Origin: a virus
Lineage: Duplodnaviria > Heunggongvirae > Uroviricota > Caudoviricetes
DNA: 6,740 bases
Strand: one strand, 5' to 3'
IMG/VR virus record: IMGVR_UViG_2740892212_000008
Part shown: positions 2,895 through 5,634 of the stretch, piece after piece
Layout: each line of letters begins with the position of its first letter
Position numbering within the stretch: the stretch's first letter is position 1
Position numbers and translations under genes: made by a program
The notes under the pieces: model-generated
What the model was told of the DNA's origin: nothing
What the model saw: the letters and a program-made list of their open reading frames with translations, nothing else
Databases searched by the model: none

Positions 2895-3446
2895 ATGATA
2901 TATCCGGAAATTACAGGCAAAAGCGGCGAACATTTACGCCTGAACACGCTGGAAGCAGTCTGGATCCAGGGGAAATTACGGATGTGGGGGCGGTGGTCGT
3001 ATATCGGTGGGGGTAAATCCGGAAATATGTTTAACCGGTTACTGGTTTCGAAAAAGCTGACGAAAACAGCAGTTAATGAGGTTTTACGCAGAATGAAGAA
3101 ATCCGGGCTGGAAAAACCGGAACTTGAGGCATTTTTTCGGGATATGACAAGAGGAAAGCAGAAGAGCTGGTTGTCACATTGTACAGACACAGAGGCGTTG
3201 ATTATTGATCGCGTTATCAGTGAGGTGCTTGGGGAATATCCCGGGCTAATCAATGTTCTCCGGCAAAGGTACGAAGGACGGGGAATGAGCAAACTGAACA
3301 TGGCCGAAAGGTTAAATGCAGATCATCCTGATTGGTCGTTGGTTACGTGCAGACGCCGAATTGATCAATGGTTGGGGGTATCTGAATTTATGTTATATGC
3401 CCCCATGCGCATGGCTTTTGTTACAGAGAAAAATGTTGCAAACTGA
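2895..3446 (+). CDS. putative late-gene antiterminator Q
   Basis: Position is diagnostic: directly after rusA and directly before terminator structures and late-region cargo. 183 aa from ATG 2895; the in-frame GTG 2883 overlaps the rusA stop as an alternative start. Family assignment is from context and weak recall only. Confidence 0.6.
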   Translation: MIYPEITGKSGEHLRLNTLEAVWIQGKLRMWGRWSYIGGGKSGNMFNRLLVSKKLTKTAVNEVLRRMKKSGLEKPELEAFFRDMTRGKQKSWLSHCTDTEALIIDRVISEVLGEYPGLINVLRQRYEGRGMSKLNMAERLNADHPDWSLVTCRRRIDQWLGVSEFMLYAPMRMAFVTEKNVAN

Positions 3447-3526
3447 TCAATAAACTGCTTCAATCCGTATAAGCTTCGCAAAGCTGTATCGCGAGGCGAA
3501 ACGCAAGTTTTTTTCGCACAAGGAAG
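3436..3526 (+). promoter_or_regulatory. candidate late promoter (PR'-like) and Q-utilisation region
   Basis: -35-like TTGCAA at 3436-3441 inside the Q 3' end; -10-like hexamers TTCAAT (3459-3464) and TATAAG (3468-3473). Exact promoter not resolved. Region carries nested inverted repeats and a weak hairpin plus T7 at 3496-3514. Confidence 0.3.
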
Positions 3527-3547
3527 CCACCGGAAGGTGGTTTTTTT
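3527..3547 (+). terminator. rho-independent terminator, tR'-like
   Basis: Stem CCACC / GGTGG with GGAA loop, followed by seven T (3541-3547). Confidence 0.6.
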
Positions 3548-3670
3548 GTGTCCGCGATATACAGTAGCGCAATAAATTCGCTGGTGGTTATTAATACCGT
3601 TCTTTCAGCTTGCTGGCTTTTTCGACAAGAGTTATTGGTGTGTCACGTTAACCGGAAAAGGGAAAAAGAC

Positions 3671-3868
3671 ATGCTAAAACAGCAGGATATGACAGAAACC
3701 GCCAGAGTGGTGTTTAATGAATTAAGCGTTACCGAACCGGCGACAGTCGGGGAGATAGCGCAGAATACTTACCTTTCACGCGAACGCTGCCAGTTAATAC
3801 TGACCCAGCTGGTTATGGCGGGTCTGGCAGACTATCAGTTCGGTTGTTACAGACGCCTTCCGCAGTGA
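3671..3868 (+). CDS. small protein, 65 aa, winged-helix-like (PapI/FaeA-like pattern), putative DNA-binding regulator
   Basis: ATG 3671 with AAGGGA 7 nt upstream. The segment TVGEIAQNTYLSRERCQLILTQLVMAGL resembles a helix-turn-helix recognition region. The ORF-track version starts at GTG 3548, next to the terminator T-run, and is less likely. Confidence 0.5.
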   Translation: MLKQQDMTETARVVFNELSVTEPATVGEIAQNTYLSRERCQLILTQLVMAGLADYQFGCYRRLPQ

Positions 3869-3878
3869 AGGCTTTTTT
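3855..3878 (+). terminator. terminator-like hairpin overlapping the small ORF stop codon
   Basis: Stem GCCTTC / GAAGGC with 6-nt loop, followed by TTTTTT. Confidence 0.4.
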
Positions 3879-3895
3879 ATTTGTGGTAAATGGGC

Positions 3896-3926
3896 GGCTG
3901 GTGGGTGTTAGGGGCACCCACCAGCC
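3896..3926. repeat. perfect 12-bp inverted repeat with 7-nt spacer
   Basis: GGCTGGTGGGTG (3896-3907), spacer TTAGGGG, CACCCACCAGCC (3915-3926). No adjacent T-run, so it is an operator or RNA-structure candidate rather than a terminator. Confidence 0.7.
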
Positions 3927-5117: not shown

Positions 5118-5193
5118 GGCCCTTTAGCTCAGTGGTGAGAGCGAGCGACTCATAATCGCCAGGTCGCTGGTTCAAATCCAGCAAGGGCCACCA
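5118..5193 (+). tRNA. ileZ: tRNA-Ile2 (anticodon CAU, lysidine type), phage-encoded
   Basis: 76 nt with canonical cloverleaf: acceptor GGCCCUU/AAGGGCC, anticodon loop CUCAUAA, T-loop UUCAAAU, 3' ACCA. Very close to E. coli tRNA-Ile2. Confidence 0.85.
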
Positions 5194-5200
5194 TCACATA

Positions 5201-5277
5201 CCGCCATTATCTCATCAGGAAAGAGCGCCAGCCTTCGAAGCTGGTTGCGCGGAGTTCGGGTCCCCGAAGGCGGTCCA
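5201..5277 (+). tRNA. tRNA-Arg-like (anticodon UCG), possibly degenerate (argN position)
   Basis: Anticodon stem-loop CCAGC-CUUCGAA-GCUGG and a D-loop with A14 and GG are present. Acceptor stem has one mismatch, T-stem one mismatch, and T-loop is UUCGGGU (G where A58 is expected). Confidence 0.45.
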
Positions 5278-5290
5278 TTATCTGTATCCT

Positions 5291-5367
5291 GCGTTGTTAG
5301 CTCAGCCGGACAGAGCAATTGCCTTCTAAGCAATCGGTCACTGGTTCGAATCCAGTACAACGCGCCA
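5291..5367 (+). tRNA. argO: tRNA-Arg (anticodon UCU), phage-encoded
   Basis: 77 nt with canonical cloverleaf: acceptor GCGUUGU/ACAACGC, anticodon loop CUUCUAA, T-loop UUCGAAU, 3' GCCA. Confidence 0.85.
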
Positions 5368-5407: not shown

Positions 5408-5604
5408 AAATGTCTCACAATTCAGACGGTTGACAGTTGTCTGTTTTGCGGGGAGTTTGTTAAAAGAAACTGGCATGGTGAATCCCCCTGTGCGGAGGGG
5501 CAATCAGCGAGTAGGTATATGGGATAATCGTGGATTCAGGTGCTGGTACTGAATTCACCGGGAGGCACCCGGCACCATGCAATGGCACATAGCGCCACTC
5601 TCCA

Positions 5605-5628
5605 GCCCCTCTCCGGAGGGGCTTTCTT
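5605..5628 (+). terminator. terminator-like hairpin, plus strand
   Basis: Stem GCCCCTC / GAGGGGC with TCCG loop, followed by TTTCTTAT. Confidence 0.4.
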
Positions 5629-5634
5629 ATGGAC

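Follow-up and report, generated by a model that had tools for sequence, protein, structure and literature searches.

A candidate phage 21-type late-gene control cassette downstream of a DUF1133-family Q gene in an Escherichia coli lambdoid prophage

Introduction

The late genes of lambdoid phages are placed under the control of Q antiterminators, as in the pR'/qut/tR' region of phage lambda, in which a constitutive promoter follows the Q gene, the Q site lies between the -35 and -10 elements, a -10-like pause element occupies the start of the transcript and a terminator frees a short RNA in lysogens, Q being required for read-through into the late genes (PMC7547250, complemented by general knowledge). 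It is also established, for StxS, that antiterminated late promoters can yield regulatory short RNAs: this Hfq-binding small RNA results from termination at tR' of Stx phages and represses the translation of stx1 (PMC7547250). For phage 21, the annotated record (OL657228) gives the order -35 (TTGACA), QBEu and QBEd, -10 (AACACT), start (A), SDPE (TAAGCTG) and terminator. QBEu (ATTGAGCA) and QBEd (AATGAGCA) together fill the 17-bp spacer, and the annotated start is the A found one base ahead of TAAGCT and 7 nt past the -10.

Proteins of the DUF1133 family occupy the Q position in many prophages of E. coli, Salmonella, Klebsiella and Enterobacter, among them O157:H7 elements whose late operon includes morons, tRNAs and small RNAs. 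One comparative paper previously labelled DUF1133 as "Q antiterminator (HHPred)" (PMC8136144), while RefSeq still names these proteins after a domain of unknown function.

Here, we report the analysis of a 6,740-nucleotide stretch of viral DNA (hereafter the window; all positions count from its first letter) with regard to the region that follows its DUF1133 gene. From homology and from the layout of the elements, we conclude that positions 3436-3551 probably form the cassette that controls the late genes of a lambdoid prophage, the Q of which belongs to the DUF1133 branch of the Q21 family.

Genomic Context and Identity of the Q Gene

The window belongs to a lambdoid prophage of E. coli, and strain D1, among others, is 100% identical to it across 3300-3900. 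The genes and the boundary that frame the region are the following:

2895-3446, plus strand: Q-type late antiterminator gene of the DUF1133 family, 183 aa (Pfam, PDB profile, BLASTP and RefSeq CDS coordinates)
3570-3580, no strand: mosaic junction, where the Q-promoter-terminator module ends and a module common to Stx phages with other Q genes starts
3671-3868, plus strand: 65-aa winged-helix-like ORF, predicted first gene of the read-through transcript (RefSeq CDS start; weak TrmB match)

The window holds, in this order, hok/sok, a masked N stretch, a DUF968 gene, rusA and the DUF1133 gene, followed by the 65-aa ORF, a DNA methylase gene, three tRNAs, an STnc100-type small RNA and a NanS-like esterase gene. 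In strain D1, holin, lysozyme and lysis genes are located further downstream, within a host prophage in partial decay that contains IS elements and pseudogenes. Given this gene order, the region sits at the usual lambdoid-phage spot for a late promoter and its terminator. When a 156-nt query (3425-3580) was compared with 5426 complete E. coli genomes, copies of the leader and terminator covering at least 80% of the query were present in 619 of them, most being about 92% identical, such as the copy in prophage Sp9 of O157:H7 Sakai, a strain in which copies of the region occur in three places. Regarding the downstream boundary, matches to phages start at query positions 271-281, 303 or 321, which correspond to 3570-3620 of the window. 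Phages with other Q genes share DNA with the window only from there on, and the Q gene, promoter, pause element and terminator thus appear to form one exchangeable module, ending about 25 nt past the terminator U-tract.

The product of the gene at 2895-3446, for which the RefSeq name is just "DUF1133 family protein", scores above the cut-off of two Pfam families, namely PF06576 (DUF1133, 348 bits) and PF06530 (Phage_antitermQ, 30.6 bits for a cut-off of 26). Its sole significant matches in the PDB are the Q21 structures 6P18 and 6JNX (phmmer E of 1e-5 with the single sequence; E of 1e-7 with a 20-sequence profile). Moreover, end-to-end BLASTP against the phage 21 Q protein, a single pairwise comparison, returned 24% identity with an E of 3e-9 and a colinear alignment over residues 14-181. 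An AlphaFold2 model obtained with 24 close homologues had a mean pLDDT of 57, too poor to confirm the fold. On the strength of these similarities, we regard the DUF1133 protein as belonging, distantly, to the Q21 antiterminator family.

Predicted Late Promoter, Candidate Q Site and Putative Pause Element

The original prediction expected Q-dependent antitermination to act downstream of the Q stop codon and left the late promoter and the Q-utilisation site unplaced. Q-dependent late control would indeed act here, and by homology with phage 21 both elements can be placed at 3436-3476, a segment that overlaps the last Q codons and lies upstream of all the features described at first. For this purpose, the region was aligned with the annotated phage 21 late region (OL657228) and with 35 related loci, the set being made of post-Q regions from phages and from 30 genomes of other Enterobacterales (Q identity 48-79%). 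The predicted elements are:

3436-3441, plus strand: -35 of pR', TTGCAA, within the last Q codons (conserved TTG; position of the phage 21 -35 TTGACA)
3442-3458, plus strand: 17-bp spacer, candidate Q-binding element (phage 21 layout)
3442-3449 and 3450-3457, plus strand: putative distal (ACTGATCA) and proximal (ATAAACTG) spacer halves, delimited after phage 21
3456-3464, plus strand: extended -10 of pR', TGcTTCAAT, with TTCAAT at 3459-3464 (family profile; 17 bp from the -35)
3469-3472, plus strand: predicted transcription start shared by the late transcript and the short leader RNA (from the phage 21 rules only)
3470-3476, plus strand: putative sigma-dependent pause element, -10-like, with the hexamer TAAGCT at 3470-3475 (identity with the phage 21 SDPE)

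A common pattern, TTGNNN followed after 17 nt by a hexamer and, 5-7 nt further, by TAnG[C/A]T, is shared by 32 of the 36 loci, which comprise phage 21 itself and loci with Q identities from 48 to 100%. In a column profile built on the 29 unique blocks, information peaks at TTG, at the TG before the first hexamer and at both TTnAAT and TAnGCT. In the last motif, T, A, G, C and T are near-invariant, while the 5-nt gap between the two hexamers carries much less information and its bases vary freely. In the window, the second hexamer is TAAGCT, that is, the first six bases of the annotated phage 21 SDPE, and a -10-like pause element would hence stand at the start of the transcript, as is characteristic of a Q21-type cassette. 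According to the two rules given by phage 21, the start would be A3469 or A3471. With a gap of 5 nt between the -10 and the pause hexamer rather than the 7 nt of phage 21, the pause element would begin at -1 to +2 and not at +2.

The spacer brings further similarities. Several Klebsiella/Enterobacter-type loci carry ATTGAGCA, AATGAGCA or AGTGAGCA right after the -35, and the first two of these strings are exact phage 21 QBE subsites; in Rac-SA53, the sequence runs on as TAAGATGCCGTT, compared with TAAGCTGCCGTT in phage 21. In the window itself, the distal half agrees with ATTGAGCA at 6 of 8 positions, and the proximal half resembles that of most of the family (consensus ~AKAAASTG), most strongly at its 3' TG. 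The two halves agree with each other at 2 of 8 positions and hence, unlike the QBE of phage 21, do not form 8-bp direct repeats. We propose 3442-3458 as a candidate Q-binding element. In view of the layout, the pause hexamer and the QBE subsites found in relatives, the regulatory DNA seems akin to that of phage 21, as does the protein.

A consensus promoter scan gave no match at the pR' region because the TTCAAT hexamer is devoid of the consensus A at position 2. As the same scan also misses the published pR' and terminator of phage 21, its negative result here is uninformative. A mapped late start was also sought in the literature on Rac-SA53 and LT-II, where nothing usable was found.

Another assignment of the two hexamers has to be considered, in which TAAGCT (3470-3475) would be the true -10, with a start at about 3481-3482 and no pause element, the conserved TTG...TGcTTCAAT serving purely for protein binding. 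TAnGCT does keep the key promoter bases T -12, A -11 and T -7, TTCAAT is without the A at -11, and a TGn directly precedes TAnGCT in many Klebsiella-type loci, although it is missing from the window, from Sakai and from loci L004, L023, L030 and L035. However, there is no -35-like hexamer 16-18 bp upstream of TAAGCT, TTGCAA being 28 bp off; the motif TTG-17 bp-TGnTTnAAT is conserved as well as TAnGCT is; and the annotated start of phage 21 lies one base upstream of the very same six bases. We consider this assignment unlikely and retain TTCAAT as the predicted -10 and TAAGCT as the putative pause element.

The Intrinsic Terminator tR'

The read-through decision would be taken at a single element:

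3516-3551, plus strand: tR' intrinsic terminator (fold energies, shuffles, variants and family scan)

The strong terminator described by the original prediction at 3527-3547 (CCACCGGAAGGTGGTTTTTTT) is real and goes beyond chance. Its core stem (3527-3531/3536-3540, loop GGAA, -7.6 kcal/mol) is followed by a U-tract of seven U at 3541-3547, and an A-rich upstream tract can extend the pairing to 16 bp over 3516-3551 (-23.3 kcal/mol). The fold of 3465-3575 has a z of -4.26, with 0 of 200 shuffles folding as well, and the stem is invariant among the variants, including strain A8, whose loop is GTAG instead of GGAA. The consensus scan lists tR' on the minus strand only; on the plus strand, it probably misses the element as it extends the stem through G-T pairs into the T-run.

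Across the family, a stringent scan covered 33 matching loci and, in 26 of these, located a terminator end 59-108 nt past the pause hexamer. A further four have a GC-rich hairpin and a T-run by eye, the phage 21 terminator is annotated in its record and two loci (L002 and L032) are uncertain. The terminator end of the window is at +78, tR' lying about 77 nt past the predicted start. The stem differs by lineage, with CCACC/GGTGG here and CCCGC/GCGGG in most others. As in Q21-type cassettes, an intrinsic terminator is thereby found shortly past the promoter position and ahead of the late genes.

The Predicted Leader RNA

Termination at tR' would release a leader RNA of about 77 nt (3471-3547), for which one further structure is predicted:

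3473-3497, plus strand: 5'-proximal leader RNA hairpin, GCUUCGC/GCGAGGC (-10.6 kcal/mol, z = -2.0)

This hairpin has 7 bp and an 11-nt loop, and its 5' arm begins in the pause element. E. coli-type loci hardly vary over the 28-nt block that follows the pause hexamer (3473-3500). The Klebsiella type has a hairpin of another sequence at the same position (GCUCGG/CUGAGC, z = -2.4 to -3.4), and so does Rac-SA53 (AGAUGC/GCAUCU, z = -2.9), in which the 3' arm has a matching AUC for the GAT variant of the pause hexamer. In six other lineages, per-sequence folds gave no clear hairpin at this position. With RNAalifold, a MAFFT alignment of the leaders yielded no consensus structure owing to misaligned arms, and the leader structures were judged by per-sequence folds and shuffles. 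The hairpin might conceivably act as a 5'-end stabiliser.

Is this RNA a regulator in its own right? Similarly to StxS, it is a predicted short RNA from an antiterminated late promoter of an E. coli prophage, and its predicted shape is compatible with that of StxS: it combines a 5' hairpin and a U-rich linker with a purine tract (AAGGAAG) and a U-tailed terminator. Moreover, its U-rich segment (3503-3515) shows complementarity, with 11 Watson-Crick pairs and one G-U pair over 13 positions, to 3662-3674, where the first downstream gene has its ribosome-binding site and AUG. The leader could therefore repress the translation of that gene in lysogens. The sequence is, however, unrelated to that of StxS, and no Hfq-binding peak is reported at the homologous Sakai locus, where Table S2 of Tree et al. 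2014 lists no Hfq-bound RNA at the leader; this absence neither argues against transcription nor supports it. On balance, an StxS-like regulatory role, as opposed to the leader being a by-product, appears improbable.

The nearest Hfq peak listed in Sakai, EcOnc49, is antisense and lies within the small ORF. Regarding known small RNAs, no Rfam family matched 3436-3670 at E values up to 1. HnrS (EcOnc10-12), a 66-nt multicopy prophage small RNA, had been suspected from the three Sakai copies of the region and from a length that would nearly fit a start at 3481. It was rejected as a candidate, being about 7 kb away on the opposite strand: EcOnc12 maps to 1779522-1779569 on the minus strand in Sp9 (Tree et al. 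2014, Table S2), and the Sakai copy of the region to 1772414-1772541 on the plus strand. The Pas small RNAs were rejected as well, PasA-D being elsewhere in the late region, with PasA and PasC next to the genes for the esterase and the holin, and PasD, which is STnc100-like, immediately ahead of the esterase gene (PasA-D paper).

The Proposed Second Terminator, Inverted Repeat and GTG Start

The original prediction described a more elaborate arrangement, with tandem terminators at 3496-3514 and 3527-3547 enclosed by a helix between 3484-3493 and 3553-3564 that could form an alternative structure. Under such a model, this structure would modulate termination or read-through. The strings on which it was built are all present at these positions (CTGTATCGCG and CGCGATATACAG for the two arms, GCGAAACGCAAGTTTTTTT for the first hairpin), and our reading of them is the following:

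3484-3493, plus strand: left arm of the inverted repeat (invariant; inside the conserved leader block and hairpin)
3496-3514, plus strand: weak hairpin plus T7, not a terminator (local fold)
3553-3564, plus strand: right arm of the inverted repeat (varies without compensation; chance-level duplex)

Tandem terminators require two GC-rich hairpins, each adjoining a U-tract, and only the second one qualifies. The best local hairpin ahead of the T-run at 3508-3514, GCG-AAA-CGC, consists of 3 bp (-2.9 kcal/mol), with 3 nt between its stem and the run, which makes 3496-3514 implausible as a terminator. Within the terminated RNA of 77 nt, this T-run, which is T6 or T7 among the variants, is predicted to pair with the purine-rich 3491-3502 as the 3' arm of a hairpin spanning 3491-3517.

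As for the inverted repeat, it exists (13 nt at 77% ungapped, or 10 of 12 with a 2-nt bulge) and does not stand out as a conserved enclosing helix. It is one of four comparable inverted repeats within 256 nt, and the duplex energy between the left and right flanks is equalled or beaten in 20-23% of dinucleotide shuffles (p ~0.2). The window has CGCGAT in its right arm, where the four remaining aligned variant loci have CGTAAT or CGCAAT (CGCG becoming CGTA in three Sakai-type loci and CGCA in A8); the left arm is invariant and there is hence no compensating change. The altered right arm is that of the commoner E. coli variant. The arm duplex falls accordingly from -11.5 kcal/mol in the window to -5.9 or -7.5 kcal/mol in the variants, and the right arm of the variants takes a different left partner in folds that begin a few bases ahead of the predicted start. 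The conservation of the left arm is explained by its location inside the loop and 3' arm of the 5' leader hairpin, with no need for a long-range partner.

The minimum-energy fold of 3465-3575 (-41.2 kcal/mol) does close with the long-range helix, which is also contained in the centroid of a 230-nt read-through RNA, but the minimum-energy fold of the latter uses the local 5' hairpin instead. Furthermore, the right arm lies past the U-tract and hence cannot affect the termination decision at tR'. A tandem arrangement governed by this helix is thus very unlikely, and most likely both the T7 run at 3508-3514 and the repeat are incidental and unneeded for the proposed mechanism.

Finally, the GTG at 3548-3550, with AGGTGG (3535-3540) 7 nt upstream and an open frame (3548-3868) in phase with the ATG at 3671, could be read as the start of a 106-aa protein whose translation would be controlled by the terminator stem burying its ribosome-binding site, a start that we find scarcely credible since RefSeq uses the ATG equivalent to 3671 in five genomes, a 1-nt deletion breaks the frame between GTG and ATG in NZRM4169, phages with the same gene lose homology upstream of 3570-3620, the sole domain match (Pfam TrmB, E 0.0026, below cut-off) is wholly within the short form, and the GTG, just past the terminator U-tract, is therefore absent from the terminated RNA.

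Proposed Mechanism and Comparison With Known Late Switches

Taken together, the elements probably make up an ordinary late switch of a lambdoid prophage, phage 21-like and with one terminator, in the poorly annotated DUF1133 branch of Q proteins. By analogy with phage 21 and lambda, host sigma-70 RNA polymerase would initiate at the promoter overlapping the end of Q, at about 3469-3472, and sigma would then re-bind the -10-like TAAGCT at 3470-3475, leading to a promoter-proximal pause. Without Q, the polymerase would resume and terminate at tR' (3527-3540 followed by U7), freeing the ~77-nt leader RNA. With Q, the protein would bind the spacer DNA, presumably at the candidate site 3442-3458, load on the paused polymerase and allow it to read through tR' into the small ORF, the methylase gene, the tRNAs, the esterase gene and the lysis genes. 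With the promoter, pause element, candidate Q site and terminator now placed, the expression of late cargo genes in such prophages and the Q specificity of this branch become directly testable.

Among known systems, phage 21 (OL657228; 6P18 and 6JNX) is the closest. The Q proteins are homologous, as seen by profile and end-to-end comparison. In both cases, the promoter position directly follows or overlaps Q and combines a TTG -35 with a 17-bp spacer, which holds the QBE in phage 21, and a weak, non-consensus -10. Both also have the pause hexamer TAAGCT, with a hairpin that begins at its GCU, and an intrinsic terminator that would end a short leader RNA. In addition, the phage 21 QBE subsites occur exactly in loci whose Q proteins are related to that of the window. 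Several features nevertheless set the window apart: its protein, which Pfam places mainly in DUF1133, is no more than a distant relative of phage 21 Q, the -10-to-pause gap is shorter, the TG of an extended -10 is conserved and the spacer halves ACTGATCA and ATAAACTG are no direct repeat. Moreover, phage 21 terminates at its first hairpin, giving an RNA of about 50 nt, whereas no U-tract adjoins the first hairpin of the window's leader, and a separate, second hairpin is predicted to terminate the longer RNA.

With lambda, the similarity is one of logic. The late switch of lambda works in the manner that we propose for the window, yet its Q belongs to an unrelated protein family (PF03589) and its DNA elements differ in sequence. 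The 6S leader RNA of lambda, at 194 nt, is also longer than the one predicted here.

Relationship of the Q gene to the late promoter

Among the related loci collected for comparison, those of the Klebsiella/Enterobacter type (L003 and L018-L038) have the Q stop codon, either TGA or TAA, within TTGAAT or TTAAAT, the first hexamer of the promoter, and therefore the whole -35 element together with the spacer encodes C-terminal residues of Q. In E. coli NZRM4169 (L008), the gene that precedes the same promoter, with its leader and terminator (positions 776-931), encodes an ORF6N-domain protein and is not a DUF1133 Q gene; in this prophage, the late-control cassette has become detached from its Q. 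Regarding host assignment, enterobacterial-type DUF1133 Q genes were also encountered in contigs labelled as Candidatus Nanosynbacter (a MAG), Vagococcus and Actinobacillus phage (L017, L032 and H46, the last being one match among the Q homologues), labels which seem likely to reflect contamination or mislabelling.

Complementarity between the leader and the small ORF

The small ORF located after the late terminator has its ATG, together with its ribosome-binding site, within GAAAAAGACATGC (3662-3674), and the U-rich leader segment GCAAGTTTTTTTC (3503-3515) is complementary to this sequence over 13 nt (85%). A second U-rich stretch (3614-3623), 38 nt upstream of the small-ORF ATG, is complementary to 3662-3671, that is, to the same site. 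Either stretch could have a role in translation of the small ORF, or the pairing could be a chance product of low complexity.

Antisense signal and 3' end of the small ORF

In the O157:H7 Sakai prophage Sp9, an Hfq-binding peak, EcOnc49, is situated antisense inside the homologous small ORF (Tree et al., 2014). Its transferred position and the features of the small-ORF 3' end are as follows:

About 3802-3846, minus strand: equivalent of EcOnc49, transferred from Sakai 1772764-1772808, the position being only approximate because genome versions differ
Within 3855-3925: intrinsic terminator at the small-ORF 3' end (GCCTTC...GAAGGC followed by a T-run)
About 3895-3925: strong GC-rich hairpin after this terminator, with a weak minus-strand Rfam match to P26 (24 bits)

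In the terminator scan, the hairpin of the late terminator tR' also scored as a weak terminator on the minus strand.

Flanking RNA genes

Elsewhere in the window, further RNA loci were identified:

785-1110 and 1113-1340: hok/sok toxin-antitoxin locus (Rfam sok, 117 bits; Pfam Hok), then the isrK-like match and run of N described below
5118-5367: three tRNAs (ARAGORN: CAT, typed as Met; Arg-TCG; Arg-TCT)
5444-5634: STnc100 small RNA, between the tRNAs and an esterase gene (strong Rfam match, 137.7 bits)

After hok/sok, an isrK-like match (1119-1200) is sub-threshold (27.8 bits vs a cut-off of 50); it has a terminator-like hairpin at its end and is followed by a run of 96 N (1241-1336). A 2026 preprint links STnc100 with PasD small RNAs from EPEC. 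In the Sp9 prophage of Sakai, EcOnc28/EcOnc03, a convergent pair bound by Hfq, is located just downstream of the tRNA genes. Finally, the homologue of the CAT tRNA is annotated in RefSeq as an ileZ-like tRNA-Ile, and this set of CAT, Arg-TCG and Arg-TCT tRNAs is typical of Stx-phage late regions.
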